From NCBI GenBank assembly GCA_947366545.1, contig CANBAL010000001.1, forward strand, positions 122,504-186,503: 64,000 nucleotides of DNA. Reading direction: 5' to 3'. The position numbers were made by a program, and so were the translations under genes. Under the pieces are notes generated by a model. That model had not been told where the DNA came from and did no database searches. It saw nothing but the letters and a program-made list of their open reading frames with translations. Position 1 is the first letter of the stretch; each line of letters begins with the position of its first letter. This document shows positions 1 to 59,795 of this stretch, one piece after another. Source of the DNA: an uncultured Clostridia bacterium. GTDB lineage: Bacteria; Bacillota; Clostridia; Christensenellales; UBA1242.

Positions 1-3000
1 CACTTTCTTATTTTGGAAATGCGAAAATAGATCATACCGATGGCGATCCTTATTATTATGTGATTGTTGAAGGAGTTAAACATAGGTTTGATACTGAAGA
101 GGAAGCAAATGAATACCTTGCAAAGACCATTATTCCTGAATATGAACTTTATGCAGAAATTGAATTCAAAGCCACCGATGCTTCAATCCCAATCCACTAC
201 AAGACAAATGGGACAATGACAAAAGGGTATCTTAATTTCTACGAAGTAACAAACTTAGGTGATAGCATTTCTGAAACAAGTAAGCCTGCTGTCTTTACCA
301 AGGCTGGAAATTATGAAGTTAAAATATACCAAGCACAAAACAGAGGGCAAGCAGCATCTTTCAGTAACTCTTATCGTTTCAAATTTGTTATTTCTTCACC
401 ACAGCCAGACTTTACCGTTTATAATGGCAACAACTTAAAAGCAAACTTTGTTACTGATGGCGACATAGATACTTATTATGTAAACACTAAAAAGATTTCT
501 ATCAAATGGCAGGATAGCGACAGCAGATACATCGCAAACCTAGATAGAAATAAGGACAAAATCAAAATTACTATTGACGGCACAACATTAAAAAGTGAAG
601 AGTTTGAAGTAGAAAATGATGGTTTGCTCGCTCACCACATAGACCTAAATCTTGAAAAGTACTGGAAAAATGGAACAGAGCTTTCAATTACTATGCAACT
701 GGAAGGTCACAGCGAAAATTACGGCGAAGATTACAGCGATTTGAACAATTACGGCAAGGTTACGAAAAAGGTTGTAATTGATTATACAGCACCACTTGAA
801 AACTTGGCAGACCTTATGAGCAATGTAACAAATAGTTATTCTTCTTTCACTAGGACTTACCAAGAAATTAATATGAGGACCCTTCAAGATTATAATGGTG
901 ACGAAATAGATACAAGTGGCTGGGACCTTAATTGGAATGATGAAACTGCACTTAATGAAAAATTACAAAACGTAAGTTATTCTTATTCTAAGAGTTCTCT
1001 ACCATTCAAATATTACGCTTATAATGTGACAACTGATTTCTTTAGCAATCTGCAAGCACAAATCACCGATAAAGAACATCCACCTCTCCCTACAGATGCT
1101 AAGTATATTTATTATAAAGAAATTGGCAACATGAACGAGTACCTTACAAATTATACTCAAACAAGAAACTTCTCAGAATATAATTACAATTCTATAGAAT
1201 ATCTTGACACCATTTCTTCTGACACTCTCTATGAAATTGCAGAAAGAGATGTCGCAGGTAATACAACTATTTATATCGTACATGTTTATGAGCCTAGCAA
1301 AAACACCGCTATATCATACAAAAATAGCAATGAAACTATATCAATAGATAATGCCGAATTAAAAGACGGCTTTGACATATTCTCAATCACTGGATTTGAA
1401 CTTCAAGAATTAAACTATCTCAGCGACCCATGGGGAATATATGAATTAAATCTATATAATCACAGACCTGCATTATACATGAAATCTCCTTGGTCGAAAT
1501 TAAATAGTAACGAACAAGATATTGACACCACCATTTATAGACTTGAAAACAGCGGTGGAAGAATAAATCTAGTGGAAACTGATATTAAGTCTATCTTTAC
1601 GGGTATGCCTTCTGGGGAACGCAAGCACCATGTGTCTTTGATAAACCGATACCTAGGCACTTCAATAGATTTACGAATTTCAATTTTGAATGCAACCTAC
1701 AATGACTCTAATACAAGAAAGGACTCCACTCCTACCACTGCGACCTTAGAATTAAGAGTTCCTACCCTCGAGCAAGCAACCAGCGCTGATTATGCTTGGC
1801 TATACCCAAAAGAAATAAGGATATCTCAACGAATTGCCGCTTCTCAATCTGTATGGGAAGAATTTGGTGCGTTTACAAATAACACCGCTAATCCTTCTCT
1901 TTGGACAAGCAACAATAGTGCAATTTCATTGAACTACGCAAATGGATATCTTGTTATAACAATCAATCTGGCTGAATACAACGTATTCAAATATGAAATC
2001 CTTGACAACTTTAATCAAACAAGTACGATTTTCCAATATTTGGACGAACCAGACTTTGATGAAATAACAGGCACTAAAAATGTCTACACCACTCCTAGTG
2101 AGGCGGACGGATCAACAACCTACCTTACTTCAGGTGATATCACTTACAGATACAACTCTTTGATATTTGACATAAATATTTTTGATAAAGACCGCAAGGA
2201 TATTACCGATACTATCACCAAAAGGACAGATCCAAAAACAAATATTACTTCTATTACTTTTAGAAAGGGTGAACAAAGTGAATTACTTTACTTTATCGAA
2301 CTTAGCGACCTTATAGAAAAGAAAGCAAATTCTAAAATTAATATTAGAATTTATGACAAACTTCCTACATTCTATGATAATAATAATGCCACCGGCTCCT
2401 TCATATGGTTCCAAGATAAAAACAATAACCCAATATCAGGCAAACAAAGCAGCAGATATGAAACAATATCAATTGACGGCAAATTCTATTCCGCACAAAG
2501 CATGCTGCTTACCACCTATTCTAATAGTGTTACTGCATTATTTAGTGCTAGCCACTCATCTTACACAGATATAAATTACAGTTACAACAATCAATATTCT
2601 TACAGCATCTATTTCTCAAACGATAACGGAAATACTTGGTTGAATGTCAATGATTTTGCTACAAACGGATTTAACTTTATCGGTGCTGGTGATTACAAAT
2701 TCTTGGTAGCTTACGATGATTATTCTATACTTAACGATGCTTGTCAAATCTACTCGATTAAAATTCTTGACTCCTCTTCAGTTTACTATACCGTCTCACT
2801 TAGCGATGGTGAACTAGTAGAAAAGGCAAGAGATACCGACGGCAACCTTTTAAAATATACAATATACAATGACGACAATTTACCAACAGAAACCATAACA
2901 GAAAACTATATTGTAAGCGTTGACTACGGCGACCATGACAGCGTAAATAAAACAGGTAGCACCGAACTTAACATAAAACTTAATCTAATTAGACATTATC

Positions 3001-4421
3001 CTGCAGGCAACGGTGTTGAAGTTGAACTTTGGAACTATAGCGGTGCAAACATTACTGGCAAATTCTCTGTAATATACATTGGTAAAACTGATGATCGTGA
3101 TAGACCACTACTCGACCTTCTGACTTATGAAGATGTTTCAAGTACACCTAATATTGATCTTCACAATAACAATTTACAAATTCCTGTAAACAGCGAAGGT
3201 TTTACATTAAAGCTTAACTGGACAGACCACTTTGGTATAGATGAGAACAAGATTAATATCTATGTAGAAAAACTTTTCAACAATAGTTACATAAAGGTGG
3301 ATGTAAAAGTTTACTCTAATGGAACAACAAGATACACTACTCTTTCAAGAGCAGGCACATATAGAATAAGATTCTACGACTCCTGCACACCAAGCAATGA
3401 ACAATACTTTGGCAGCATAAACAACAACTACTTGAATTTAGTTTTACTAAACACAACCCCATTTACAGTATCTTACAAAGACCCTAACACTGGTGATACC
3501 CTTATAACAGAACCTAATACAAAGGCAGTATATAATGGTGAGGTTACACTAAGTCTTTCCAACCACTTCTCATACTTCCACCATGCACCAGATATCGAAG
3601 TGCATAAAGACGGAAATGAAGAGCCTTACACCGGCTACGACACCTCAACAAACAATTACACTTACACCTTTAAGGAAAATGGATATTATGTAGTTAAGTT
3701 TACAAATGCTGAAACAAAAGAAGGCGAGCCTATCGGCGAAGAAGAGTTTGTATTCACAATCATTAATCCAAATGAATCAAGATATGCTTACGAATTTTCA
3801 CCTTATTCAAATTACTATGTTCAAAAGGTTATGAAAAATGGTTTAGATATCACTGGGGCACTTGTTTCCCTTGCAAACAAGAACGATCTTGTTACAGTTG
3901 ATAGTAAACAGTATTTAACTAAACTTCTACTTTCTTACTTTGATGAAAGATCGGGTGCAGGAAGATACACAATAACTATTAATACTGGTGAGCAAATCTA
4001 CACTAACGCAATCTCAGAATTCACATTCTCACTCTGGATTAATCTTGCTACTCCTCCTGTCACCGTATCTATTGCAAATGGTGGCGCAACTACCGACAAC
4101 ATCTCATTAAGATTCAATGCTTATGACCTATATGATACTGTTGGTGATTGCTACATCCAAATTGGCAGTGATAGATATGACATAAATGCTGAAACCTTAT
4201 CTTCTATTGGTGGAGAAGGTGCTGGTATTACAATAACAAGAAATGGTACCTACTATATTCAGATTTACACCATGAGTGACACCTTACTTTACTCTTACAA
4301 AGTTACTAAAAATGAACCTCTCAACACTTGGGCAATCATTGCCATTGTCATCGGCGTGCTTGCTGTGGGCGTTGTAATCTTCATTACTATTAAACTTAGA
4401 AAGAGATTGAAAGTAAAATAA
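1..4421 (+). CDS. Very large repetitive cell-surface protein with a C-terminal TM anchor (5' end lies outside the window)
   Basis: The frame is open from nt 3 with no upstream stop, so the tracked GTG at 60 is not the true start. The protein is beta-rich and N/T/Y-rich, with a recurring Ig-like signature (aGxYxhxhYD, D.AGN). It ends in a hydrophobic helix (WAIIAIVIGVLAVGVVIFITI) followed by KLRKRLKVK. Confidence 0.8.
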   Translation, partial: LSYFGNAKIDHTDGDPYYYVIVEGVKHRFDTEEEANEYLAKTIIPEYELYAEIEFKATDASIPIHYKTNGTMTKGYLNFYEVTNLGDSISETSKPAVFTKAGNYEVKIYQAQNRGQAASFSNSYRFKFVISSPQPDFTVYNGNNLKANFVTDGDIDTYYVNTKKISIKWQDSDSRYIANLDRNKDKIKITIDGTTLKSEEFEVENDGLLAHHIDLNLEKYWKNGTELSITMQLEGHSENYGEDYSDLNNYGKVTKKVVIDYTAPLENLADLMSNVTNSYSSFTRTYQEINMRTLQDYNGDEIDTSGWDLNWNDETALNEKLQNVSYSYSKSSLPFKYYAYNVTTDFFSNLQAQITDKEHPPLPTDAKYIYYKEIGNMNEYLTNYTQTRNFSEYNYNSIEYLDTISSDTLYEIAERDVAGNTTIYIVHVYEPSKNTAISYKNSNETISIDNAELKDGFDIFSITGFELQELNYLSDPWGIYELNLYNHRPALYMKSPWSKLNSNEQDIDTTIYRLENSGGRINLVETDIKSIFTGMPSGERKHHVSLINRYLGTSIDLRISILNATYNDSNTRKDSTPTTATLELRVPTLEQATSADYAWLYPKEIRISQRIAASQSVWEEFGAFTNNTANPSLWTSNNSAISLNYANGYLVITINLAEYNVFKYEILDNFNQTSTIFQYLDEPDFDEITGTKNVYTTPSEADGSTTYLTSGDITYRYNSLIFDINIFDKDRKDITDTITKRTDPKTNITSITFRKGEQSELLYFIELSDLIEKKANSKINIRIYDKLPTFYDNNNATGSFIWFQDKNNNPISGKQSSRYETISIDGKFYSAQSMLLTTYSNSVTALFSASHSSYTDINYSYNNQYSYSIYFSNDNGNTWLNVNDFATNGFNFIGAGDYKFLVAYDDYSILNDACQIYSIKILDSSSVYYTVSLSDGELVEKARDTDGNLLKYTIYNDDNLPTETITENYIVSVDYGDHDSVNKTGSTELNIKLNLIRHYPAGNGVEVELWNYSGANITGKFSVIYIGKTDDRDRPLLDLLTYEDVSSTPNIDLHNNNLQIPVNSEGFTLKLNWTDHFGIDENKINIYVEKLFNNSYIKVDVKVYSNGTTRYTTLSRAGTYRIRFYDSCTPSNEQYFGSINNNYLNLVLLNTTPFTVSYKDPNTGDTLITEPNTKAVYNGEVTLSLSNHFSYFHHAPDIEVHKDGNEEPYTGYDTSTNNYTYTFKENGYYVVKFTNAETKEGEPIGEEEFVFTIINPNESRYAYEFSPYSNYYVQKVMKNGLDITGALVSLANKNDLVTVDSKQYLTKLLLSYFDERSGAGRYTITINTGEQIYTNAISEFTFSLWINLATPPVTVSIANGGATTDNISLRFNAYDLYDTVGDCYIQIGSDRYDINAETLSSIGGEGAGITITRNGTYYIQIYTMSDTLLYSYKVTKNEPLNTWAIIAIVIGVLAVGVVIFITIKLRKRLKVK

Positions 4422-4463: not shown

Positions 4464-4491
4464 TTGACAGTGCGCTAAATATGAGTATAAT
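4464..4491 (+). promoter_or_regulatory. Sigma-70-type promoter for the DUF4116 gene
   Basis: TTGACA (4464-4469), 16-nt spacer, TATAAT (4486-4491). A GGAGGG SD lies before the ATG at 4512. Confidence 0.6.
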
Positions 4492-4511: not shown

Positions 4512-5552
4512 ATGACAAAATTTTATTATGAGGGAAAAGGTTATATCGACATAAATCAAATTGTAAATTCAATTTCATCCGCCCCTTATAAAAGAAGTGC
4601 AGAGGAGAAAATAACCCCTGAAGATGAGGCCATTTATCGTGAGGCCATTAAGGGTTTGCCTCCACAAAGGATAACACAAAAATTTGCACAGAAAAGGCTG
4701 GATGCGTTGGAAAGAATTAATATTACAAAAGATAATTGTCAAGACAAAACAGCTGTTATTGCGGCAATTAAAAACGCATCAAGTGATGATATTTATTATA
4801 GTGGCCTTGAATTTCTCGTCCCTTCTTTAAGACTTGATGCTGAAGTCATGCTTAATGTTATATACAAATTTAAGTCTATCGAATATTTAAGATTAATCTG
4901 GAAAAAATTTGTTCCCGCAAAATTAAAACAAAATAAAGACTTTGTTCTTGCAGTAATAAAATACTGCCCTCAAATGTTTTCTGTTTTATATGCCACATGC
5001 TCAAGATTTGTAAAAGATAGCGATATTGCTATTGAAGCGATAACCAGAGAGCCCACACTTGCTAAATTTATTCCCCTCACGCTGCTTCAAAATGATGAAA
5101 TTTGTCTTAGATTAGTTTCAAAAAATGGACTTGCACTAGGAAAAATATATAATCAAAAAGAAGAAATTTTATTTGCAGCAGTGAAACAGAATGGCCATGC
5201 TTTAAGATATGTTGAAAGAGAAAATAAGATGAACCCCGCTCTTTTAATTGAAGCACTTAAAAGTAGAAAAGAGGCGTGGGAATTCGTACCAAATTCTTAC
5301 AAAGTTGACAAAGATTTTGCATTACTTGTTGTAGACAATATTGACTGCGAAATACTTCCCCTGATGAAATACACCTATACGAAAAACAAAATAGACATAA
5401 AGAAATGCTGGAATGACGACTTAGATGTAGGCCTGCACGCATTACTAAAAAGTAGCAGAGCATACAATTACCTAAGCAATGAACTCCAATCAAATCCTAA
5501 GATACTCACCGCTTATGAAAAAGCAAAGGCAAGAGAGGAAGAAAGTGAATAA
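4512..5552 (+). CDS. DUF4116-type repeat protein
   Basis: 346 aa with repeated ~30-aa units of the form ..A(V/I)K.NG.AL.Y(V/A)....K.D.E... typical of DUF4116. It has its own promoter and terminator. Confidence 0.65.
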   Translation: MTKFYYEGKGYIDINQIVNSISSAPYKRSAEEKITPEDEAIYREAIKGLPPQRITQKFAQKRLDALERINITKDNCQDKTAVIAAIKNASSDDIYYSGLEFLVPSLRLDAEVMLNVIYKFKSIEYLRLIWKKFVPAKLKQNKDFVLAVIKYCPQMFSVLYATCSRFVKDSDIAIEAITREPTLAKFIPLTLLQNDEICLRLVSKNGLALGKIYNQKEEILFAAVKQNGHALRYVERENKMNPALLIEALKSRKEAWEFVPNSYKVDKDFALLVVDNIDCEILPLMKYTYTKNKIDIKKCWNDDLDVGLHALLKSSRAYNYLSNELQSNPKILTAYEKAKAREEESE

Positions 5553-5579
5553 AAAAGAACTTAAATAAGTTCTTTTTTA
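5553..5579 (+). terminator. Rho-independent terminator
   Basis: Stem AGAACTTA/TAAGTTCT followed by a T-run. Confidence 0.7.
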
Positions 5580-5587
5580 TTTTTTCC

Positions 5588-5614
5588 TTGACAAATCCCC
5601 CCCCCGAGTATAAT
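5588..5614 (+). promoter_or_regulatory. Promoter with a C9 homopolymer in the -35/-10 spacer
   Basis: TTGACA (5588-5593), AAT, C9 (5597-5605), GAG, TATAAT (5609-5614). The spacer is 15 nt. The TTG start in the ORF track is actually the -35 box. Confidence 0.6.
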
Positions 5615-5620
5615 GAAGGT

Positions 5621-5860
5621 ATGGAGATGAATATGGAAAATCGACCTCAATATCAACCGCAATATCAGCCTCAATCAAAGACAAAATTAGGTGTGCTTAT
5701 ATGTTTTATACCCGGCGTATTTCCGCTTGGATGGATATTTGGACTTTTCTTCCCAAAAGGGTCTTATGAACGAAAAACTTTTTATCGCGGTTATCTACGA
5801 GTAATTTATTTTTGGCTTGCACTATTTGCCATTGGCTTTATAATTGGACTATGTGTATAA
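5621..5860 (+). CDS. Small two-TM membrane protein with a QYQPQYQPQ N-terminus
   Basis: ATGs occur at 5621, 5627 and 5633. GGAG at 5623-5626 favours 5633. Two hydrophobic helices are present (LGVLICFIPGVFPLGWIFGLFF and VIYFWLALFAIGFIIGLCV). Confidence 0.6.
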   Translation: MEMNMENRPQYQPQYQPQSKTKLGVLICFIPGVFPLGWIFGLFFPKGSYERKTFYRGYLRVIYFWLALFAIGFIIGLCV

Positions 5861-5895
5861 AAAAAGAATGGCTTTAATTAGCCCTTCTTTTTTTA

Positions 5896-6576
5896 TTACA
5901 TACCTGAGTTAAGTTTAATACCAACACCCATTGTGGATGCAATGGTGATACTCTTTATGTATTGTCCCTTTGCCGCCGCTGGTTTTGCTTTAATTATAGC
6001 CTCAATTACTGTATTGTAGTTTTCTACAAGTTTCTCTTTACCGAAACTCATTTTTCCAATTACAACATGAATAATGTTGTTTTTATCAAGTCTATATTCA
6101 ACTTTACCTGCTTTAGCATCTTTGATTGCCTTTGCAACATCCATAGTAACAGTGCCGCTTTTTGGGTTTGGCATAAGGCCCTTAGGTCCAAGCACTCTTG
6201 CAACACGTCCAACAACGCCCATCATATCTGGAGTTGTGATACATACATCAAAATCAAGCCATCCGCCTTGGATTTTTGCAACAACATCTTCTGCTCCAAC
6301 GTAGTCTGCACCAGCTTTAACAGCATCGTCTGCCTTATCGCCTTTTGCAATAACTAAAACTCTAACGCTTTTACCAGTACCATTTGGAAGTACGCACACG
6401 CCACGAACCTGTTGATCAGCATTTCTTCCGTCAACGCCAAGTCTTACATGAAGTTCTACTGTTTCATCAAACTTTGCTTTTGGAAGAGAGAGAAGTGTAT
6501 CAAAACCTGAATTTACATCATAAACGTTTTGCTTAAGCATTTCGCTTGCTGCTCTATATCTTTTACCGAATTTCAT
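5896..6576 (-). CDS. rplA: 50S ribosomal protein L1 (uL1)
   Basis: 226 aa beginning MKFGKRYR..., with ..VRLGVD...QQVRG.. motifs. It has an AAGGAGG SD and follows rplK. Confidence 0.95.
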
Positions 6577-6587
6577 ATTGCCCCTCC

Positions 6588-7019
6588 TTAGTCTACTACT
6601 GTAACGCCCATACTTCTTGCGGCGCCTTCAATCATAGACATAGCAGATTCAACACTTGTACAGTTAAGATCTGGCAATTTTGTTTCTGCGATTTGTTTAA
6701 TCTGTTCTCTAGTGATTTTTCCGACTTTTGTTTTGTTTGGTGCTGCTGACCCAGTCTCTAAGCCGATTGCCTTTTTAATAAGAACTGCGGCTGGTGGAGT
6801 CTTAAGCACGAATGTGAAACTTCTATCTTCATAGATAGTAATCACAACTGGAATGATAAGCCCTGCTTGCGCTGCGGTCTTGTCATTGAACTCTTTAGTA
6901 AAGCCAGCGATATTAATACCGTGAGGTCCGAGTGAAGAACCTACTGGTGGTCCTGGTGTGGCTTTACCTGCAGGAAGTTGTAATTTAACAACTGCTGCAA
7001 CCTTTTTCTTTGCTGCCAT
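6588..7019 (-). CDS. rplK: 50S ribosomal protein L11 (uL11)
   Basis: 143 aa with the hallmark [33 protein letters not shown]. Confidence 0.95.
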
Positions 7020-7140
7020 TTTTTCCTCCTTAAGTGGTTAAATTGAACTTTGGCAAAAGTTCTCCCACAAATTTTGGTAGTTTATTGTCGTGCCGGACAG
7101 TGTGCATTATGCACATATTTTAACGCTTTCGCGGTAAAAC

Positions 7141-7740
7141 CTAATTAATTTTTCGTACTTGTGCAAACTCAAGATCTACTGCGGTTTCTCTGCCGAACAT
7201 CTCAACATTAACTGTGATAACATTCATATCTGAATTTACAGCAGAGATTTGTCCGATCATACCGTTAAGTGGGCCATCAACAACCTCAACCTTATCTCCG
7301 ACATTAAGGTCTACCTCAACCTTGATTTTCTCAAGACGAAGTTTCATAACTTCCTCATCAGTTAAGGCAAGAGGTCTTCCCTTAGGGCCAACGAAACCAG
7401 TAATACCTCTGGTTCTTGTTACATTGTGCCAAAGGTCATCGGCATATTTCATTTTTACTAAGATATAGCAAGGCATTGCTTTACGCTGAACAAGTTTTTT
7501 CTTGCCATTCTTTTCTTCAACAACATCTTCCATAGGTATGATAATATCGAAAATTCTATCTCCAAGATTGAACTTATCTACCACGGTTTCAAGATTTTCT
7601 TTCGCCACATTCTCATAACCTGAAAAGGTGTGAAGCACATACCATTTTGCCTCAAGTTTCTGTGCAAGATCACTTGATGACTCTTTTGGCACTGTGATGA
7701 CATCATCCTTTTTTACTTTCTCAAGATTCTTTTCTTCCAT
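7141..7740 (-). CDS. nusG: Transcription termination/antitermination factor NusG
   Basis: 199 aa with WYVLHT.SGYE (NGN domain) and a C-terminal KOW (GDKVEVVDGPL.G..G.I). Conserved secE-nusG-rplK order. Confidence 0.93.
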   Translation of the reverse strand: MEEKNLEKVKKDDVITVPKESSSDLAQKLEAKWYVLHTFSGYENVAKENLETVVDKFNLGDRIFDIIIPMEDVVEEKNGKKKLVQRKAMPCYILVKMKYADDLWHNVTRTRGITGFVGPKGRPLALTDEEVMKLRLEKIKVEVDLNVGDKVEVVDGPLNGMIGQISAVNSDMNVITVNVEMFGRETAVDLEFAQVRKIN

Positions 7741-7761
7741 ATTTCTTATCCTTTTATAATT

Positions 7762-8124
7762 TTAGCCAAATGGATTGAAAGGTTTGCCCATTAAAGCACT
7801 TGAAGCAAGCCCTAACAAGAGGTCAATTCCAAAAAGTACGACTGCAAAAATAATTACAACCGCAAGTACTACGCCCGTTCTTTTCACAACTGTTGGAAAG
7901 GTTGTCCAAGTGACTTTTTTAAGTTCAGAAACTGTTTCCTTGGTCTTTTTAGCGACTGTGTGTTTCTTCTCTTTTTTCTTAGCCTTGTTCTTGTCCGCCT
8001 TTTTGTCCACCTTTGCGTTTACTTTCGTCTCTTGTGTGGACTCCACTTTTTGTGCAGAATCAGGTGCCGTATTTTCTGTTGCAACTTTTACTTCTTCGGT
8101 AACTAATTTTTGCTTTTTAGACAT
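7762..8124 (-). CDS. secE: Preprotein translocase subunit SecE with a Lys-rich N-terminal extension
   Basis: The C-terminal ELKKVTWTT......VV..FA....GIDL motif and a single TM helix are present. It lies between rpmG and nusG. Confidence 0.85.
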   Translation of the reverse strand: MSKKQKLVTEEVKVATENTAPDSAQKVESTQETKVNAKVDKKADKNKAKKKEKKHTVAKKTKETVSELKKVTWTTFPTVVKRTGVVLAVVIIFAVVLFGIDLLLGLASSALMGKPFNPFG

Positions 8125-12663: not shown

Positions 12664-13776
12664 TTAGTTTTTTTTTACATCCTCGCTATTTAGCCCCATC
12701 ATTGCTGAAAGCGAAAGCGTTTCAAGCAGCAGTCTTGGGGAGAGTGTGTACCGAAGTTCGTTCTCTGCCCCTGCAAAGATTTGCATAAAAGAAATCAGTT
12801 TCTTTTCATCCACCGCCTTAGCCTGAGCGATAAATCTTTCAAGCACCTCTTGTGGCAGATTTAATAGTTTGTTTGGATCATCACAAGTGGCACAAACAAG
12901 CAAGTTTCTTGCATGCTTTGACAAATCCTTTACAAACACTGACATATTCTTGCCAGTTTTATCAAGTTCGTCAATAAATTCAAGCAGTCCACCAATCTCT
13001 TTATTGAAAGCAAGATCATAAAATTTTAACAAATTGTCATAATCTGTACTTCCAAGTACTTTCAATGCATCCTCTTTGGTGACTTTGCCGCCGCTGTATG
13101 CGCATATTGAATCCGCAATCGAAAGCGTGTCTCTCACACTGCCTTCCCCGCTTGCTGCGATGAGTTTTAATGCCTCATCATCATAACTAATATTTTCACT
13201 ATCTAATATATTGCGGAGTAATTTTGTCAGTAACTCCACGCTTACAAGTCTAAAGTCAAATCTTACGCATCTAGAAAGTATTGTGGCTGGAAGTTTATGC
13301 ACCTCTGTGGTTGCCAAAATGAAAATGACATGTTTTGGTGGTTCCTCAAGTGTTTTTAAAAGTGCATTAAATGCACTGTCTGTAAGCATATGCACTTCGT
13401 CAATTATGTATACCTTATATTTAGCACCTACTGGAAGAAACTTCACCTTTTCGCGTATCTCACGAATATCATCCACCCTATTATTCGATGCAGCATCAAT
13501 TTCAATTACATTGATATCGTTTTCACCTTCCAGTCTTTTGCAGGTATCGCATTGCCCACATGGCGAGCCATTTTGATTGTTTTCACAATTTACTGCTTTT
13601 GCAAGTATTCTTGCAACGCTGGTTTTACCTATTCCACGTGATCCTGTGAAAAGATAGGCATGAGATAAACTGCCACTTGCAATTTGATTTGCAAGTGCTT
13701 TCGTAATATGTTCCTGCCCGATAACCTCTTCAAAGTTTTTTGGTCTATACTTTCTATATAATGCTAAATGTTCCAT
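12664..13776 (-). CDS. dnaX: DNA polymerase III subunit gamma/tau, short (370 aa) form
   Basis: Walker A (GSRGIGKTS), a Zn module (CENNQNGSPCGQCDTC), DEVHML and SRC motifs are present. It ends right after domain III. Confidence 0.92.
   Translation of the reverse strand: MEHLALYRKYRPKNFEEVIGQEHITKALANQIASGSLSHAYLFTGSRGIGKTSVARILAKAVNCENNQNGSPCGQCDTCKRLEGENDINVIEIDAASNNRVDDIREIREKVKFLPVGAKYKVYIIDEVHMLTDSAFNALLKTLEEPPKHVIFILATTEVHKLPATILSRCVRFDFRLVSVELLTKLLRNILDSENISYDDEALKLIAASGEGSVRDTLSIADSICAYSGGKVTKEDALKVLGSTDYDNLLKFYDLAFNKEIGGLLEFIDELDKTGKNMSVFVKDLSKHARNLLVCATCDDPNKLLNLPQEVLERFIAQAKAVDEKKLISFMQIFAGAENELRYTLSPRLLLETLSLSAMMGLNSEDVKKN
12668..12676 (-). other. A9 homopolymer (candidate slippery site) at the dnaX 3' end
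   Basis: The minus strand reads GAGGATGTAAAAAAAAACTAAAGTTGATG. Frame 0 gives GTA AAA AAA AAC TAA. The -1 frame gives AAA AAA AAA CTA AAG TTG ATG GCG, which is the downstream ORF. Confidence 0.6.
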
Positions 13777-13816
13777 ATCTTTATATTACACTTTTATCCT
13801 TTAAATTGCAAACAAA

Positions 13817-14563
13817 TTAAACAAGGCTTATTAAATTTAAAAATCCGCCTTCTTCCAAACTTGCCCCACCGATAAGTGCACCATTAACGCCCTTTGCATG
13901 GGTGATACCATGAATATTCTTGTTTGTCACACTTCCGCCATAAAGGACTGTTATGCTCTTTGCCGCTTTAAGGGAAAAGTCGTCTTCAATAACCTTTCTT
14001 ATCGCCCTTACGCCGTATTCAATTTCCCTTATTGTTGCATTTTTGCCGGTACCTATCGCCCAAATCGGCTCATAAGAAATGGTCACGCGCTCAAGCTCAT
14101 TTTCATAAAGCCCTTTTAGTGCTTCTTCTATCTGAGTTTTCAAAGTCTCTAATGTTTTTAAAGTGTTCTTTTCAGCAAGAGATTCTCCTACGCAAAGAAT
14201 TACTCCAAGCCCATTTTTTAGTGCAACTTTAATTTTTTTGTTTATTTGGTTGTTATTTTCTTTAAATTTTACCCGTCTTTCGCTATGTCCTACTATAACT
14301 GTATCAACTCCACTTTCTCTTAGCATAGCACCGCTAATTTCACCGGTGTAGCTGCCGCACTCCTCTTCATGAAGATTTTGTGCGCCAAGTTTTATCTTCG
14401 TACCATTTAATAACAACTTTCCTAGGTACAAAGAGGTGTATGGCAGACAAAGTGTCAAATCGACATTCTTATCACTATCAAATCTAGAAATCATATTGAT
14501 CAAATATTCTCGTGACCTAGATGGCGTTTGATTCATTTTAATATTTGCTACTATCTTTTTCAT
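13817..14563 (-). CDS. tpiA: Triosephosphate isomerase
   Basis: 248 aa with ANIKMN, VGHSERR, YEPIWAIGTG and GGASL motifs. It overlaps the pgk stop. Confidence 0.93.
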   Translation of the reverse strand: MKKIVANIKMNQTPSRSREYLINMISRFDSDKNVDLTLCLPYTSLYLGKLLLNGTKIKLGAQNLHEEECGSYTGEISGAMLRESGVDTVIVGHSERRVKFKENNNQINKKIKVALKNGLGVILCVGESLAEKNTLKTLETLKTQIEEALKGLYENELERVTISYEPIWAIGTGKNATIREIEYGVRAIRKVIEDDFSLKAAKSITVLYGGSVTNKNIHGITHAKGVNGALIGGASLEEGGFLNLISLV

Positions 14564-15735
14564 CTTATCTTCTCCTGAATAACCTCAAGGCATGGCAAGG
14601 ATCCATCTTCAATAAATTTCAAAGTTGCTCCGCCGCCAGTAGAAAGGAAGTTGACCCCACTCGCGTTCTTGCTTGCTTTGACCGCACTCACGCTGTCTCC
14701 GCCGCCAACAACCGAATACGCCTTACTTACACTAATAGCTTTAGCAATTTTATTTGTGCCCTCTCTGAACTCCTCATCTTCATACTTGCCAAGAGGACCA
14801 TTCCATACTATCTGTCCTGCCTTTGCTATTTCTTCACTAAACAGTTTCACCGTCTTTGGCCCGATATCCATACCAACCATATCTTCAATAAGGTTGTCGG
14901 TTACAAACTTTTTAGTAGAGCCCTTTCTTACTGCAACATGATCGATAGGAAGAAGTACCTTCTTTCCCTTTTGCGCTGCGTAATTAAGCACCTCGCGTGC
15001 AACATCAACACTATCAAGGTAGGTTATAGATTCCCCGACCGCGGTGCCTGTGGCAACAAGGAAGGTATACGCCATTGCACCGCCAATCAAAATGGTATCG
15101 GCTTGGTCAATAAAGCGTCTTAATATCTTGATTTTATATGGCACCTTTGCACCGCCGATAACTGCTACAAAAGGTCTTTTAGGGTTTTCCATGGCTTGAG
15201 TAAGAACATTAACCTCTTTCTCCATAAGTAGTCCTATCGCATTTGGCATAAGCCTTGCTATGCCATATGTAGTTGCATGTTTTCTATGGGAGCAACCGAA
15301 AGCATCGTTGACAAAAACATCACCTATTGATGCAAGGTCGCGAGCAAACTTCATGTCGCAATTTACTTCGCCTTCGTAAAATCTTACATTTTCAAGTAAA
15401 AGCACCTCGCCATTATTCATTGAGTGTAGCCTTTCCTTAACCTCTACCCCTACGGCCTTATTGCTGAAATATACCTTGGTGTTAAGTTTTTGCATGAGTA
15501 TTAAAGAAATTGGCCACAGCGATAATCTAATTTCATAGCCTTGTGGACGCCCCATGTGTGACATAATCACTATTTTTGCACCCTGTTCTATTAAATATTT
15601 AATAGTTGGAATAGCAGCATTCACCCTGTTTAAATCCAAAATCTTACCATTTTTGTCGATTGGCACATTGAAATCTACACGAAGTAGCACTACTTTACCT
15701 TTAAGATTTACCAAATCCTTTACCGTTCTTTTCAT
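14560..15735 (-). CDS. pgk: Phosphoglycerate kinase
   Basis: 391 aa with RVDFNVP, SHMGRP and STGGGA motifs. Confidence 0.95.
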   Translation of the reverse strand: MKRTVKDLVNLKGKVVLLRVDFNVPIDKNGKILDLNRVNAAIPTIKYLIEQGAKIVIMSHMGRPQGYEIRLSLWPISLILMQKLNTKVYFSNKAVGVEVKERLHSMNNGEVLLLENVRFYEGEVNCDMKFARDLASIGDVFVNDAFGCSHRKHATTYGIARLMPNAIGLLMEKEVNVLTQAMENPKRPFVAVIGGAKVPYKIKILRRFIDQADTILIGGAMAYTFLVATGTAVGESITYLDSVDVAREVLNYAAQKGKKVLLPIDHVAVRKGSTKKFVTDNLIEDMVGMDIGPKTVKLFSEEIAKAGQIVWNGPLGKYEDEEFREGTNKIAKAISVSKAYSVVGGGDSVSAVKASKNASGVNFLSTGGGATLKFIEDGSLPCLEVIQEKIR

Positions 15736-15782
15736 GATATCTCCTTAACTAAAGAATACTATATTTAATAAAAATCACAAAA

Positions 15783-16703
15783 CTATTTTAATATATCTTT
15801 CAAGATTTTTAAACTCTCGTCTATACTTGGACTTGTCGCAATTTTTAGGCGCGTCTCACTTGCATAAGGAATATCGCAGGTATACCATAAGAAATGTTTA
15901 CGAAGATACAACACCAAAAATTCTTCACTATAATGTTGACGCAAAATATTCACATGCTTTTCTATAACCGCATAAACATCTTTTGGTTTTTCGCCGCCTT
16001 TAAGAATACGAAAAATCCAAGGCTTGCCTTGCGCGCCACGCCCTATCATCACACCGTCAACGCCGGTGCTTTTCATTCTGTTATAACTTTCCATATCTAC
16101 AACATCGCCGTTGCCTATCACGGGAATATTTACGCTGGCTTTAAGTCTTGCTATTGCATCTAGGTCTGCACTGCCACTATAACCCTGCTCGGTTGTCCTT
16201 GCATGGAGAGTGATAAAGCTTGCACCCGCGTCTTCACACATTCTGCCAAATTCCCGACTGATATCTTTATCATATCCTAGCCTAAACTTTACTGACACTG
16301 GCCTTGACGATGCTCGCACGCACGCTCTTATTATCTCTCCTGCAAGTGGTAAATCTTTCATTAGCGCACTGCCCTCACCATTTTTGACAATTTTTGGTGC
16401 GGGACACCCCATATTGATATCAATTACATCGTAGTGACTTAAAAGCGGATTGTTGACCGCTTTTGCCATTATCACTGGCTCATGTCCAAAAATTTGACCA
16501 ACCTTAAACTTCTCCGCCTCGCTTGTCAAGGTCATAAATTCCGTTTTTTTAGGATTATGAAGCATGGCACGGGCTGAAAGCATTTCGCTCCATGACGCAT
16601 CCGCACCTTCTTCACAAGCAAGTTGTCTAAAACCGATATCACTTACGCCTGCCATAGGGGCAAGGCAAAGTGCTTCATGAAAATCTAAATTCCCTATCTT
16701 CAT
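15783..16703 (-). CDS. dus: tRNA-dihydrouridine synthase
   Basis: 306 aa with LAPMAGVSD, DINMGCP and the FITLHART motif of the Dus family. Confidence 0.88.
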   Translation of the reverse strand: MKIGNLDFHEALCLAPMAGVSDIGFRQLACEEGADASWSEMLSARAMLHNPKKTEFMTLTSEAEKFKVGQIFGHEPVIMAKAVNNPLLSHYDVIDINMGCPAPKIVKNGEGSALMKDLPLAGEIIRACVRASSRPVSVKFRLGYDKDISREFGRMCEDAGASFITLHARTTEQGYSGSADLDAIARLKASVNIPVIGNGDVVDMESYNRMKSTGVDGVMIGRGAQGKPWIFRILKGGEKPKDVYAVIEKHVNILRQHYSEEFLVLYLRKHFLWYTCDIPYASETRLKIATSPSIDESLKILKDILK

Positions 16704-16738
16704 AGGTTTATTTTAGCAAATTTGACACAAAAAATAAA

Positions 16739-17011
16739 CTATTTTACCGCCAGTTTAAAGCTTTCAAAACTTTTGAAGGTGGTCACCTTTTTAGGACGGG
16801 ACATATACACCCGTTTTGTAATAGGATTTACGCATCTTCTTGACTTAGTCTCCACCACCTTAAATTTGCCAAAGTTTCTTAAAGACACTTCTTCTCCCTT
16901 CTTTAACACCTCAATAATTGTATTCCTAAACTCAGTTAACACCTTTTCACATTTGAGTTTAGAAAGTTTTGTCTTTCTTGAAACAAGTTCAACAAGTTCG
17001 CTCTTATTCAT
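16739..17011 (-). CDS. hup: HU/IHF-family DNA-binding protein
   Basis: 90 aa with MNKSELV....., G....L..FGKF.V and R..RNP-like arm residues. Confidence 0.88.
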   Translation of the reverse strand: MNKSELVELVSRKTKLSKLKCEKVLTEFRNTIIEVLKKGEEVSLRNFGKFKVVETKSRRCVNPITKRVYMSRPKKVTTFKSFESFKLAVK

Positions 17012-18566
17012 TCTTCTCCTCCCTTTTTAAATGCTTGCCAAGATATACTGTTATTAAACTTTTTATTATCGGTAGGCATAATAAAATATAGGTTATTCCT
17101 CCTAAAATAACAGAAAGCAAGAGCATAACTATACTTGACAATTCTAGGGTGCGTATAAAAATCCATACAACCATAAACATTACAAGGGAAGCAAGCAGCG
17201 GAGTGAAAAACTCAAAAGCCCCTACCTTTACAAGTCCGCCGAGTTTAATCATTGATAAGATGCAAACAATAAGTGCCAAAACAATGTTTGAAAGTGGCAA
17301 TGCAAATATGTTTACCTCTGGCAAAAACGCGGTAAATATGACAATAAGGACTTTGGCAAGTCCACCTACAAAGGTGACTATAAAAGAATAGGTATAATAA
17401 CCTTTCGCTTGTAAAATTGAAAGCAAAAATTGCATAATGGCAGATAATATTATGCTCACTCCACCTATCATTGTAAGACTAATCGCCTGTGACAAATACC
17501 CTTTAATTGCCGAAGGGTATATTATGGGATAAAGCAATGGAGATACCGCCATAATTCCAAAAACAAGGGGCAACAGAAAAAGCCACAAAAGTGAAAACGA
17601 TGTTGAAATGGTACTTTTTTGCCCCTCCAAGTCACCCTTCCCCGATAGAAAAGAAATTTTAGGCAGTAATGCCATGGCCACCGAAAGAGATATGATTAGT
17701 GGAAAGTTTAATATCGCGCCCACCACACCCGTTTGCAACCCATAAAGTGAAGTGGCAACCTCTGCCCCAATACCTGCGATAGCAAGTCTACCGACAATAA
17801 CAAGGGAATCTATCGCATGTGTCAGCGGCAAAACTCCACCCGCAAGGGAAAGTGGCACAACCGCAGTAAAAAAAGGTTTTATAACAAAAGAAGAATCATA
17901 CTTTGATAATTTCATCTTTGTAAGCATATATAAAATTAGGTAACCACCCGCAAGTATTTCACTTAGCGTTATACCGATAAAAGCACCAAACACACCCATT
18001 CCGCGGCTGCCAAGTAACATCGCAAACAATAAACCAAAGGCAAACTTAATTATCTGCTCAAGTATTTGGCTTATCGCAGTTGGAATCATATTCTCATAAC
18101 CTTGAATCACCCCTCTCATACAGCCTATCAGCGAGCCTAATATTAAAAGTGGAAGAATCAGCCTATAAGAGATATAGTTCGCACCTATCCCCTGCGTAGA
18201 TGCAATACTGCGGGCAAATATAAAAAACACACCGCCTATAACCAAACTTAGTCCTACCGAAAAGTAAAGGGAAATCCTAAGATAGCCGCGTATTTTCCCA
18301 TTTTCTCCCCTTGCACGCGACTGCGAAACAAGTTTGGAAAGCGAGGTTGTCACTCCGCCAGTGGTAAGCACAAGCATAAGAGAGTAGAGCGACATTACCA
18401 TTTGGAAAGCACCAATTCCATCAATTCCTATTATATTAGTAAGAGGCAACCGAAACATGGCACCAAAAAGTTTGCAGATAAACCCACTTACAATAAGTAC
18501 TATTGCACCTCTTCCCACACCATTTTTCATAAGATTAGGGTGCGAAAATAGCATTTTTTTATACAA
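17004..18566 (-). CDS. MOP-superfamily flippase (SpoVB/MurJ-like polysaccharide or lipid II exporter)
   Basis: 520 aa, about 14 predicted TM helices, and an N-terminus (G.......G...K..G...R.PL.NIIG..G.G) typical of this family. Confidence 0.75.
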   Translation of the reverse strand: MYKKMLFSHPNLMKNGVGRGAIVLIVSGFICKLFGAMFRLPLTNIIGIDGIGAFQMVMSLYSLMLVLTTGGVTTSLSKLVSQSRARGENGKIRGYLRISLYFSVGLSLVIGGVFFIFARSIASTQGIGANYISYRLILPLLILGSLIGCMRGVIQGYENMIPTAISQILEQIIKFAFGLLFAMLLGSRGMGVFGAFIGITLSEILAGGYLILYMLTKMKLSKYDSSFVIKPFFTAVVPLSLAGGVLPLTHAIDSLVIVGRLAIAGIGAEVATSLYGLQTGVVGAILNFPLIISLSVAMALLPKISFLSGKGDLEGQKSTISTSFSLLWLFLLPLVFGIMAVSPLLYPIIYPSAIKGYLSQAISLTMIGGVSIILSAIMQFLLSILQAKGYYTYSFIVTFVGGLAKVLIVIFTAFLPEVNIFALPLSNIVLALIVCILSMIKLGGLVKVGAFEFFTPLLASLVMFMVVWIFIRTLELSSIVMLLLSVILGGITYILLCLPIIKSLITVYLGKHLKREEKNE

Positions 18567-18660
18567 ATAGGAAAAAATAGAAATATAAAAATTTTTTAAA
18601 AAAGGTATTTACATTTGCATTTTTTTATGCTATCATATAGCCAATAAGAGGAGTATACTA

Positions 18661-19143
18661 ATGGAAAAAAGATATATTACTGATACAAATCCTTATGAAG
18701 GACAGGGCGGAGAATTCTTCCAGCGTATGAATGATATGCTTGCACTTGTTTATTTTGCTTCTTTTAAACTTAGAAAAACACCAGAAGCTTATGATGCTTT
18801 CTTTGCTAAAAAAGAAAAATTTAAAAGAGCGACTGAAAATACAACCAAAATGCAAGAGGATTTAATTAAAATTAAGGAAATGAAAAATATCAAAAGTCAG
18901 CCTATTTTAAACGAGATTAATGATTTCGTTACAAGAATGACAGATGAAGATAAATATACTGATTTGGTTTCATATTATGCAAGAACAGAAGGGCACCCTT
19001 ATTTCTTAGTAAGTAAATTAATGAATGACATTGCAAACAATAGAGTTGACCAAGAACAAGCAGTGGCTGAATTCAAAGAATTTGCAACAAAACTTGAAAA
19101 TGCCTTTGATCATAGACGTGAAAATAATGATGAAAGTGTATAA
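18661..19143 (+). CDS. Hypothetical protein (160 aa, helical)
   Basis: AGAGGAG SD and a TTTACA-17-TATCAT promoter at about 18611-18639. I recognise no motif. Confidence 0.6.
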   Translation: MEKRYITDTNPYEGQGGEFFQRMNDMLALVYFASFKLRKTPEAYDAFFAKKEKFKRATENTTKMQEDLIKIKEMKNIKSQPILNEINDFVTRMTDEDKYTDLVSYYARTEGHPYFLVSKLMNDIANNRVDQEQAVAEFKEFATKLENAFDHRRENNDESV

Positions 19144-19170
19144 AAAATCCCTATAATTAGGGATTTTTTT
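19142..19170. terminator. Bidirectional terminator
   Basis: Stem ATCCCTA/TAGGGAT flanked by an A-run and a T-run, between convergent genes. Confidence 0.75.
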
Positions 19171-19867
19171 ATTGTTCTATCTCTTCTACAACTTTACTTA
19201 TTTGTATTTGCGCCTCAAAAGTCGCCGTGATATTTTCTACACTTTCTTGCACCGCTCGACTACCAAACTCGTCAACATCAGCTTCCACTTGAAGTGCAGC
19301 CGTTTTCTTATCGATATTTTCTAGCACAGAACTTGCATCTTCTTCATCTTGTTGCTTCTTGAAAGCACTAACAATGCTGAGTACTTCTTCCTCTTCGTCA
19401 TGCTCAACGATAGGCTCAGACTTTTTGGTTTTTTCTGTCGTTTCCTTTGCTGGCTCTACTCTTTTCACCTCTGCGGGTTTTTCTTCTTTCGCTTTTTCTT
19501 CATGTTTTATCGTGGTGACAACTGACGCTCCGTACTGACCAGTAGTTGTCTTCTTTTCATCTTTTTTGTCTTTCTTAGCCTTTCCACCCTTGTCTTTTTT
19601 GCCACCCTTGTCTTTTCCTCCACCGCTCTTTTTTGCTGCGGCCTTTTTTGCAGGGGCATCTTTTTTTGCTGCGGCTGGTTTTGCGGAAGTAGTGCCTGCT
19701 TTTTCGCTTTTTGCTTCAGTCTGTTTACTCTTAACCTCAACGCCGGATTTCAGCATTTCAGCCTTTTGCATAGACTGCACAAATTCCTTCATAGGCTTAT
19801 GGATTTCTTCCTTTTCTATTGGAAGAGCCTCAAACCCACCTTTTTCTTCTATAACTTTGTCAAGCAC
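19169..19867 (-). CDS. Lys/Ala/Glu-rich low-complexity protein (start uncertain)
   Basis: The tracked start is a GTG without an SD. The frame is open for 38 more codons upstream, to the TAA that ends the preceding ORF in the same frame. It contains histone-H1-like AKK/KDKGGK repeats. Confidence 0.5.
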   Translation of the reverse strand: MLDKVIEEKGGFEALPIEKEEIHKPMKEFVQSMQKAEMLKSGVEVKSKQTEAKSEKAGTTSAKPAAAKKDAPAKKAAAKKSGGGKDKGGKKDKGGKAKKDKKDEKKTTTGQYGASVVTTIKHEEKAKEEKPAEVKRVEPAKETTEKTKKSEPIVEHDEEEEVLSIVSAFKKQQDEEDASSVLENIDKKTAALQVEADVDEFGSRAVQESVENITATFEAQIQISKVVEEIEQ

Positions 19868-19981
19868 CTTTTGAAGAACGACATTTATATGATCTTGTTT
19901 TTCAAGCGGAGTTTCACTTTTAACTTTTTCTGCTTGTTTTTTATACTCGTTTGCTATTTCTTGCCCTTGTTTACATGGTTT

Positions 19982-20596
19982 TTACATCATTTTCAAGGTA
20001 AGCATCACATAAATCTGCGCACCCAAATCGGTGACTTGGTCAAAAATGATCTCCTCATCTATCATGTTTTGCATTTTTACTGCAAGATTAGGTACAAGTA
20101 AGTCATTATTTTGCTGGATTGAATCAACCAAGTTGAAATTAATATAAATATTTTCTTTAAGTCTATCATTATATGGGAAGATTGCCCTTGCAACAAAGGT
20201 GTGAAGGGACTTTACTGGCTCATAGCCGTCTACCGTCTCATTCAAATATAAAGTAGCCTCAACAAGATCATTATTTTTATAGTCCACCACAACTGAAAAG
20301 TTGAAGGCCTTGCCCATAAACACGCTAAGCGCTGTGTAAATATCTAAAGTGCTGTCGACAACCTCTTTTTTCATTCTAACAAGGTCGCGTCTTATCTCAT
20401 CCTCAAAGGTGTAGTTGCCTTCATCGGTCACAAAACCTACAAGTTTGTTTTTGATTAAAACCTGATTTAATTGTATTTTATAATAATCTATCTCGTCTTT
20501 ATTGGTAAGGATTTTATCCTTGTTCCAAACCTTACAAGAAAGTTCTTCTTGTGGCTCTTCTACAACAAGATGATTTTTCTTTGATCCTCGTGCCAT
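19982..20596 (-). CDS. Hypothetical protein (204 aa counted from MARGSKK)
   Basis: AAGAGGA SD before the ATG at 20596. It ends with a TAA that is in frame with the next ORF. Confidence 0.6.
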   Translation of the reverse strand: MARGSKKNHLVVEEPQEELSCKVWNKDKILTNKDEIDYYKIQLNQVLIKNKLVGFVTDEGNYTFEDEIRRDLVRMKKEVVDSTLDIYTALSVFMGKAFNFSVVVDYKNNDLVEATLYLNETVDGYEPVKSLHTFVARAIFPYNDRLKENIYINFNLVDSIQQNNDLLVPNLAVKMQNMIDEEIIFDQVTDLGAQIYVMLTLKMM

Positions 20597-33726: not shown

Positions 33727-33729
33727 AGG

Positions 33730-33759
33730 AAAACGACCTGATTTAAGGTCGTTTTTTTG
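33730..33759 (+). terminator. Rho-independent terminator
   Basis: Stem AACGACCT/AGGTCGTT followed by a T7 run. Confidence 0.75.
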
Positions 33760-33844
33760 TCGATAATTTAAGATATTTGCTCGGTCGATCCTTGACAATA
33801 GGCCTATTAAATGTTATTATTATAATATAATACTGGAGGAATAT

Positions 33845-58977: not shown

Positions 58978-59014
58978 TTGACAAACTCCCCCCCCCACGC
59001 CGTATACTTATAAT
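58978..59014 (+). promoter_or_regulatory. Promoter with a C9 homopolymer between the -35 and -10 boxes
   Basis: TTGACA (58978-58983), AACT, C9 (58988-58996), ACGCCG, TATACT (59003-59008), with TATAAT at 59009-59014. The spacers are 19 and 25 nt. Confidence 0.55.
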
Positions 59015-59042: not shown

Positions 59043-59795
59043 ATGAAAAAAGTTTTTAAAAGTCTAGTAGTGGGAGCCCTTGCAATTCCATGTGCATTAC
59101 TTTGCACAGCCTGCGGCACTGATAATTCAGTAAAGGTAGACACAAGTGGAGATTGGAAACCAATTGATAAAACAAGTGCTTATACCGAAGTTTCAACCAT
59201 ACCAACTGAGAATTTAGACTTTGACGGGCTTAGGTTTACAATTAAACAAGAGATGGAAGGTCAAGGACAAAAAGCCACAATTACCATGAACGGAATGGCT
59301 TTATACAATGGACAAAACGTTGATTTTAAAATGGACATGACGGTGGCAGCATCCGGAAAAAGCGAAACCATGCATATGTATTTGAATGAAAACATTTTGT
59401 ACATAAATGCCATGAATCAAAAATACAAAGTTACTTTTGGAAGCAGTGATACTGATTTTGATCAATATATTGAAATGGTACCAGATGCAGAGTTTGTAAC
59501 AGGCGCAATAGAGCAAATGCAAAATGCCATTTTAGACAGTCAAAAGTCTGAGGTTGACGGTGTGACAAAATACTACTTCAAACTTGATGGCGATCAAATG
59601 GCAGAGGCAGCAGACATGACATTTGAGGAATGGATTGTATTAAAGGACGGCAAATTTGATAGTTTCAAAATAATTACAAGTGGTGTTATGCAAGGTTTCT
59701 CAACCAAGATTACTATGGACATGGAAAAATACACTGGCACTATTGATTTCCCAAGTTTTGACGGCTATGTTGATATGGGCTCTATGGTTGGTTAA
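59043..59795 (+). CDS. Putative secreted lipoprotein (250 aa)
   Basis: GGGAGGA SD. The signal peptide MKKVFKSLVVGALAIPCALLCTAC-G carries a lipobox-like TAC. Confidence 0.7.
   Translation: MKKVFKSLVVGALAIPCALLCTACGTDNSVKVDTSGDWKPIDKTSAYTEVSTIPTENLDFDGLRFTIKQEMEGQGQKATITMNGMALYNGQNVDFKMDMTVAASGKSETMHMYLNENILYINAMNQKYKVTFGSSDTDFDQYIEMVPDAEFVTGAIEQMQNAILDSQKSEVDGVTKYYFKLDGDQMAEAADMTFEEWIVLKDGKFDSFKIITSGVMQGFSTKITMDMEKYTGTIDFPSFDGYVDMGSMVG

Follow-up and report, generated by a model that had tools for sequence, protein, structure and literature searches.

Promoters in which the length of a repeat tract sets the spacing between the −35 and −10 boxes form a well-known mechanistic class. The fim promoters of Bordetella are of the C-stretch type. 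In Neisseria meningitidis porA, the spacer that separates the −35 box from the −10 box contains a poly-G tract of ~9–11 residues (van der Ende 1995, as cited in PMC5084427; discussed in PMC7864442), and in Neisseria opc a poly-C tract overlaps the −35 box (Sarkari 1994, as cited in PMC5084427). In Treponema pallidum, the tp0126 promoter carries a poly-G tract between the two boxes and is optimal at 17 nt, while the poly-G tract of tprL ranges from 7 to 11 residues in vivo with most copies at 9, and such tracts are common to the subspecies (PMC7864442). Campylobacter jejuni is known for its poly-G contingency loci (PMC3025981). Multi-locus repeat-based phase variation has been described almost only from pathogens, and a recent review treats this restriction as an open question that may reflect database bias (PMC11868660).

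The locus described here (site 1) lies in a 64-kb stretch of DNA, hereafter the window, and carries a C9 homopolymer between perfect −35 and −10 hexamers; a sister promoter (site 2) is located further downstream. Their features, in window coordinates, are as follows.

5545..5556, plus strand: left copy of a 12-nt direct repeat, GTGAATAAAAAA, overlapping the DUF4116 stop codon (repeat search)
5548..5581, plus strand: terminator-like hairpin (two arms of 16 nt, 100% complementary) with a T run behind it (inverted-repeat search)
5588..5593, plus strand: −35 hexamer TTGACA, perfect consensus (sequence)
5594..5608, plus strand: spacer AAT-C9-GAG of 15 nt, with AAT at 5594–5596 and GAG at 5606–5608 (sequence)
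5597..5605, plus strand: C9 homopolymer, putative slippage-prone tract (run census)
5609..5614, plus strand: −10 hexamer TATAAT, perfect consensus (sequence)
5623..5626, plus strand: Shine-Dalgarno sequence GGAG, 6 nt ahead of the ATG at 5633 (sequence)
5633..5860, plus strand: gene for a protein of 75 aa that has two hydrophobic segments and, at its N-terminus, a PQYQ repeat (ORF; sole clear relative P0008)
5853..5864, plus strand: right copy of the direct repeat, GTGTATAAAAAA (repeat search)
5857..5896, no strand assigned: bidirectional terminator hairpin common to the small gene and the convergent rplA (inverted-repeat search)
58978..59014, plus strand: sister promoter TTGACA-AACT-C9-ACGCCG-TATACT-TATAAT (sequence), with TTGACA at 58978–58983, C9 at 58988–58996, TATACT at 59003–59008 and TATAAT at 59009–59014
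59043..59795, plus strand: gene downstream of the sister promoter, encoding a 250-aa protein with a lipoprotein-type signal (LLCTAC|G)

The arrangement TTGACA-AAT-C9-GAG-TATAAT with its 15-nt spacer, as given by an earlier sequence-only reading of this DNA, was confirmed at 5588–5614, and so was the near-identical TTGACA-AACT-C9 that it had pointed out at 58978, where the spacer to TATACT measures 19 nt. The same reading had called a C9 tract very improbable by chance, and this was borne out: at a window GC content of 37.1%, the two C9 runs are the only C/G runs of at least 6 within 64 kb, ~0.02 runs of at least 9 being expected, and the pattern TTGACAAA-N0-3-C6 had two matches in the window versus none in 100 dinucleotide-preserving shuffles. 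Both tracts exceed the slip-capable length of about 7–8 or more. At site 1, a terminator lies upstream of the tract promoter, from which transcription presumably starts, and a Shine-Dalgarno sequence and ATG lie downstream. The hairpin at 5548..5581 is predicted to end the DUF4116 transcript and, by its position, belongs to an inserted cassette described below. An Rfam search returned no RNA element near site 1 or site 2. A reading of site 1 as an invertible promoter (fimS type, as found by PhaseFinder) was rejected, since the promoter is not enclosed by any pair of inverted repeats; within 5300–6100, the strongest such repeats are those of the two terminator hairpins.

The source genome is a MAG of an uncultured gut Clostridia bacterium near Christensenellaceae. 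Species-representative genomes were scanned with NusG, for which the best matches were 97% and 95% identical, and this gave 80 loci (L001–L080), all from uncultured gut Clostridia and with records labelled Christensenellaceae, Christensenella, Catabacter or Eubacteriales MAGs, which together with the window provided 1.42 Mb for a census of C/G runs. Runs of 6 were observed 8 times (52 expected) and runs of 7 once (9 expected), while runs of 8 occurred 4 times (1.6 expected), runs of 9 occurred 9 times (0.27 expected) and a run of 10 occurred once (0.05 expected). Run lengths were thus bimodal, with depletion at 6–7 and ~30-fold enrichment at 9; the longest tract was 10, and none exceeded this length. 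Against a simple composition model, runs of 5–7 were strongly depleted in the same set. Long G/C runs are over-represented against a background that avoids them, as in multi-locus contingency genomes of the Campylobacter, Neisseria and Treponema type, and the depletion points to slippage-prone runs being avoided throughout the genome except in the promoter tracts.

Thirteen of the 15 runs of at least 7 were found between a TTGAC[AG] box and a −10 hexamer (at least five of six positions, TAnnnT), the latter being a perfect TATAAT in five. On the coding strand, the tract reads as C in some promoters and as G in others, and its position within the spacer differs among promoters, which fits a length device better than a binding site at a fixed position. 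Among the 12 downstream genes that could be read, 11 encode envelope proteins, i.e. lipoproteins or proteins with a signal peptide or membrane anchor (p ~1.5e-5). The flanks of the tract are biased: on the C strand, the 3′ base is G in 15 of 17 tract promoters (p ~7e-8), and AAT stands on the 5′ side in 8 of 17. These flanks do not depend on the orientation of the tract in the promoter, CAAAT-C9-G in C-type promoters being the reverse complement of C-G9-ATTTG in G-type promoters (L006 at 5063 and L008 at 12485). Low-GC chance matches among the metagenome matches listed did not show the bias; this metagenome pattern scan, whose listed matches were mostly chance hits from unrelated environments, served as a flank-composition control only.

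The optimum of 17 nt that the earlier reading had assumed holds for this clade. Ordinary −35/−10 pairs in the 1.42 Mb showed an excess of 125 at 17 nt versus 13–29 at 15, 16 and 18–20 nt, and in the window itself nine of the 12 other promoter-like TTGACA/−10 pairs had a spacer of 17 nt and one a spacer of 16 nt. Because ordinary promoters of the clade use 17 nt, the spacers of site 1 (15 nt) and site 2 (19 nt) are off-optimum. The same was true of every tract promoter in the census: the 13 spacers measured 12, 14, 15 (four promoters), 16 (four promoters), 18, 19 and 20 nt, and the chance of finding none of 13 at 17 nt is ~7e-6 if 60% of real promoters have that length.

With porA, these promoters share a G/C homopolymer in the spacer and the link to a surface protein; porA expression depends on reaching 17 nt. 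The two differ in that experiments have established that porA length varies and that expression changes with it, both of which are predictions for the promoters reported here, and also in the perfect hexamers, the Gram-positive-type gut commensal host and the absence of any observed allele at the optimum. The tp0126 and tpr loci of T. pallidum are similar in having multiple tracts of ~8–10 in envelope-gene promoters with a modal length of 9; in T. pallidum the tracts are conserved among subspecies and yet vary within isolates. They differ in that T. pallidum is a spirochaete pathogen in which this variation was measured by fragment-length analysis (PMC7864442), and in that the clade tracts are found on both strands and move together with small gene cassettes. 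Promoter poly-C acts as a volume control for a surface protein in Neisseria opc and Bordetella fim as well; in those systems, the tract replaces or overlaps the −35 box and works with an activator, whereas here a perfect TTGACA stands upstream of the tract. Like C. jejuni, the clade is AT-rich, avoids G/C runs yet is enriched for them at ~9, and has its loci tied to surface structures, but the C. jejuni tracts are mostly coding and act by frameshift, unlike the 13 of 15 found here in promoter spacers (PMC3025981).

The gene directly behind the site-1 promoter encodes the small two-TM protein that the earlier reading had proposed, in so far as its 75 aa contain two hydrophobic segments (residues 17–41 and 53–75); an independent gene call (P0001) has the same start as the ORF at 5633–5860. 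Three tandem 12-nt units at 5637–5675 encode the PQYQ repeat, which is missing from the homologue P0008. No Pfam family was assigned to the small protein or to the site-2 lipoprotein. A word-index search of 5.8 billion clusters matched the small protein to itself only, and a full HMMER search identified the 84-aa homologue P0008 (57% identity) on a contig of another organism, L205, where it adjoins a pyruvate phosphate dikinase gene and has right upstream the promoter TTGACA-TT-C8-GTAT-TAAAAT with a spacer of 14 nt. A more distant homologue (39% identity) had no tract.

The upstream neighbours named by the earlier reading, a very large surface protein and a DUF4116 protein, were both recovered, the latter by Pfam (E=1.6e-22). 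The former (60–4421) is at least 1453 aa long, being cut at the window start, has no Pfam family and ends in a C-terminal membrane anchor with the terminal residues RKRLKVK; its L004 counterpart (13355–20503) has 2382 aa, and in several relatives this gene adjoins the rplA–nusG cluster. A perfect TTGACA-16 nt-TATAAT promoter precedes the DUF4116 gene at 4464–4491, and promoters of this genome are in general unusually near consensus. Elsewhere in the window, two adjacent large ORFs of 678 aa and 1329 aa (31690–37834) had no Pfam match, and genes of 834 aa and 708 aa that had been considered as MutS and MutL are GyrA and a UvrD-like helicase.

Terminator hairpin, C9 promoter and small gene together form a 308-bp insertion (repeat spacing 308), flanked by the 12-nt direct repeat GTG[A/T]ATAAAAAA and absent from the genomes of the two closest species, L001 and L002. 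There, the rplA terminator follows directly after the DUF4116 stop codon, and the hairpin at 5857..5896 in the window is its orthologue. The insertion looks like a small promoter–gene cassette gained at a terminator. A decayed copy was found in L004 (12245–12345), in the opposite orientation relative to rplA: the C8 promoter and ribosome-binding site are intact (TTGACAAAT-C8-GAGTAAAAT), the ORF stops after four codons (MEVG*), and a terminator follows. Tract length at these homologous site-1 loci is thus C9 in the window and C8 in both L205 and L004. Since the non-C spacer bases sum to 6 in all three copies, C11 would give 17 nt; the earlier reading had put the gap to the optimum at one or two C. 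A BLAST comparison of the 308-bp cassette with plasmids and phages gave no match, and scans of viral contigs found no copy of it, only unrelated tract sites. One group of these viral contigs, an unrelated system, shows a one-base tract-length difference between relatives at the same site (TTGACAAATA-C8 or C9-GAAAGAAC), with C8 in L216, L227 and L234 and C9 in L226 and L229.

When L1, the small protein, the DUF4116 protein and the site-2 lipoprotein were each looked up by exact sequence, no further contig of this species came up. Allelic diversity was seen at another tract promoter of the clade. A ~1.25-kb segment of L007 and L008 (in 6400–8000 and 6360–7960, minus strand), carrying a C9 promoter and the gene for a 310-aa membrane protein, is 99.7% identical between two genomes that are otherwise ~89% identical, which points to a recent exchange between species, and the few differences within it are clustered in the promoter core. 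Across assemblies, four alleles were found upstream of the 310-aa gene, those of L007, L008 and L207 differing by flank indels and by interruption of the tract.

Allele 1: TTGACA-AAT-C9-GAG-TATACT, spacer 15 nt
Allele 2: TTGACA-C9-GAG-TATAAT (AAT deleted), spacer 12 nt
Allele 3: TTGACA-ATCA-C6-GAG-TATAAT, spacer 13 nt
Allele 4: promoter replaced by terminator-like sequence

The second tract loci of L007 and L008 did not align as orthologues. Three of five Logan contigs for genes behind tract promoters end in the tract or within ~60 nt of it (L212 at 1–10, L083 at 1–27 and L211 at 1); these ends were considered as a sign of tract heterogeneity, and low coverage explains them equally well.

Site 2 could be followed over larger evolutionary distances. 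Four orthologues of its lipoprotein (L081–L084) share 74–77% amino-acid identity, and as L083 begins just downstream of the −10 box, promoters were compared among the window, L081, L082 and L084. L082 and L084, which read TTGACAAATT-C9-GCATCG-TATACTTATAAT, match the window in both C9 and the 19-nt spacing, while in L081 the tract is interrupted (CCCCCTACC instead of C9) with the total length unchanged. Synonymous divergence (dS) of the lipoprotein genes is 0.3–2.6 overall and 0.9–2.2 when each orthologue is compared with the window; a dN/dS of 0.06–0.2 indicates purifying selection on the gene, which is by this measure functional. As tract length and spacing persist over a saturated synonymous divergence (dS 0.9–2.6), they are under constraint, and this conservation suggests direct selection on exactly C9 and 19 nt. 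A tract length invariant across strains, which the earlier reading had named as refuting, is seen in part, at site 2, where length is the same in four species; the homologous site-1 loci have C9, C8 and C8.

The reading that we prefer is that C9 is a slippage-prone tract tuning the spacing and strength of the promoter, as a member of a multi-locus envelope-gene set. The tract would fix how far apart the consensus −35 and −10 boxes stand, and the RNA polymerase of the clade would need 17 nt between them; since the assembled site-1 allele has 15 nt, it is predicted to be weak or off. Gain or loss of C at replication would shift promoter strength, with an optimum at C11. Site 1 would be one of many C- or G-tract promoters controlling envelope-protein genes in these uncultured gut Clostridia, and promoter and gene would be gained, lost and exchanged together as small cassettes. 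On/off switching of such promoters is plausible. Spacer-length phase variation, the central proposal of the sequence-only reading, is favoured by the anatomy, the off-optimum spacing, recurrence in the clade, the C8/C9 difference and the four alleles, but not by the constancy of C9 and 19 nt at site 2. Slippage also fares less well with other observations: no tract promoter of the clade sits at the predicted 17-nt optimum, the optimum of the site-1 cassette is two or three steps away, the AAT deletion is a non-C indel among the alleles, and the 3′ G in 15 of 17 tracts is left unexplained. Because exact C9 is kept at site 2 and the 3′ G is conserved, we regard slippage as about an even prospect. 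In T. pallidum, a modal length of 9 is kept across lineages, so a conserved length is compatible with within-population variation.

The main rival to slippage is a fixed sequence-specific element whose length selection keeps constant. [A/T]C9G would then be bound by a regulator of envelope genes peculiar to the clade, or serve it as a structural signal, and such a regulator could be a repressor that occupies the spacer of strong promoters; we hold this to be rather unlikely. It would account well for C9 and total spacing conserved at site 2 in four species at saturated synonymous divergence, for the tight mode of tract length at 9 and for flanks (3′ G in 15 of 17, 5′ AAT in 8 of 17) that are independent of facing, differ from the listed chance matches and are mirrored as reverse complement between CAAAT-C9-G and the C-G9-ATTTG of L006 and L008. 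However, such an element gives no reason for the avoidance of 17 nt or for spacers ranging over 12–20 nt, the tract has no fixed place in the spacer, lengths 8, 9 and 10 all occur (C8 versus C9 even at homologous promoters), and interrupted tracts persist beside intact genes in L081 and L207. To our knowledge, no bacterial regulator recognises a homopolymer, which also counts against it.

That the promoters are deliberately weak or supercoiling-sensitive, the off-optimal GC-rich spacer setting low, condition-dependent expression and the homopolymer being incidental, appears improbable. Every tract promoter does combine consensus hexamers with a non-17 spacer, and the genes behind them are under purifying selection and must therefore be expressed to some extent from these promoters, but neither a pure homopolymer spacer, nor the avoidance of runs of 6–7 against ~30-fold enrichment at 9, nor the occurrence of both short and long spacers is explained in this way. 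Least probable is a functionless tract, left behind as copies of a single promoter cassette spread through the genome, or else an assembly or sequencing artefact at homopolymers. The tracts appear in independent assemblies from NCBI, ENA, JGI and Logan, many of the promoters have unrelated flanks and opposite orientation, and conservation over dS >1, the enrichment of long runs and the strong envelope-gene link likewise speak against it, even though a 27-nt core, TTGACAAAT-Cn-GAGTAtAAT, recurs at unrelated loci (window, L004, L007 and L008), the site-1 promoter and gene are a 308-bp insertion, and the Logan contigs L083, L211 and L212 stop at the tract or close to it. Returning to slippage, a broader picture can be offered only tentatively: this non-pathogenic clade may express envelope-protein genes across the genome from portable promoter–gene cassettes in which [A/T]C8-10G tracts keep consensus hexamers 1–3 bp off the optimum, which would amount to multi-locus repeat-based phase variation in a commensal Firmicute, possibly together with a tract-specific binding factor, which would account for the conserved flanks.

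Literature searches turned up no description of homopolymer promoters from Christensenellaceae or from their relatives among the gut Clostridia, and multi-locus tract promoters in a clade of uncultured commensal Clostridia appear to be unreported. If tract length does vary, abundant uncultured commensals would diversify their surface by the trick known from Neisseria and Treponema, which bears on whether multi-locus phase variation is restricted to pathogens (PMC11868660). If this is true, metagenome-assembled genomes would report only the majority state of such genes, which would mostly be the off state.
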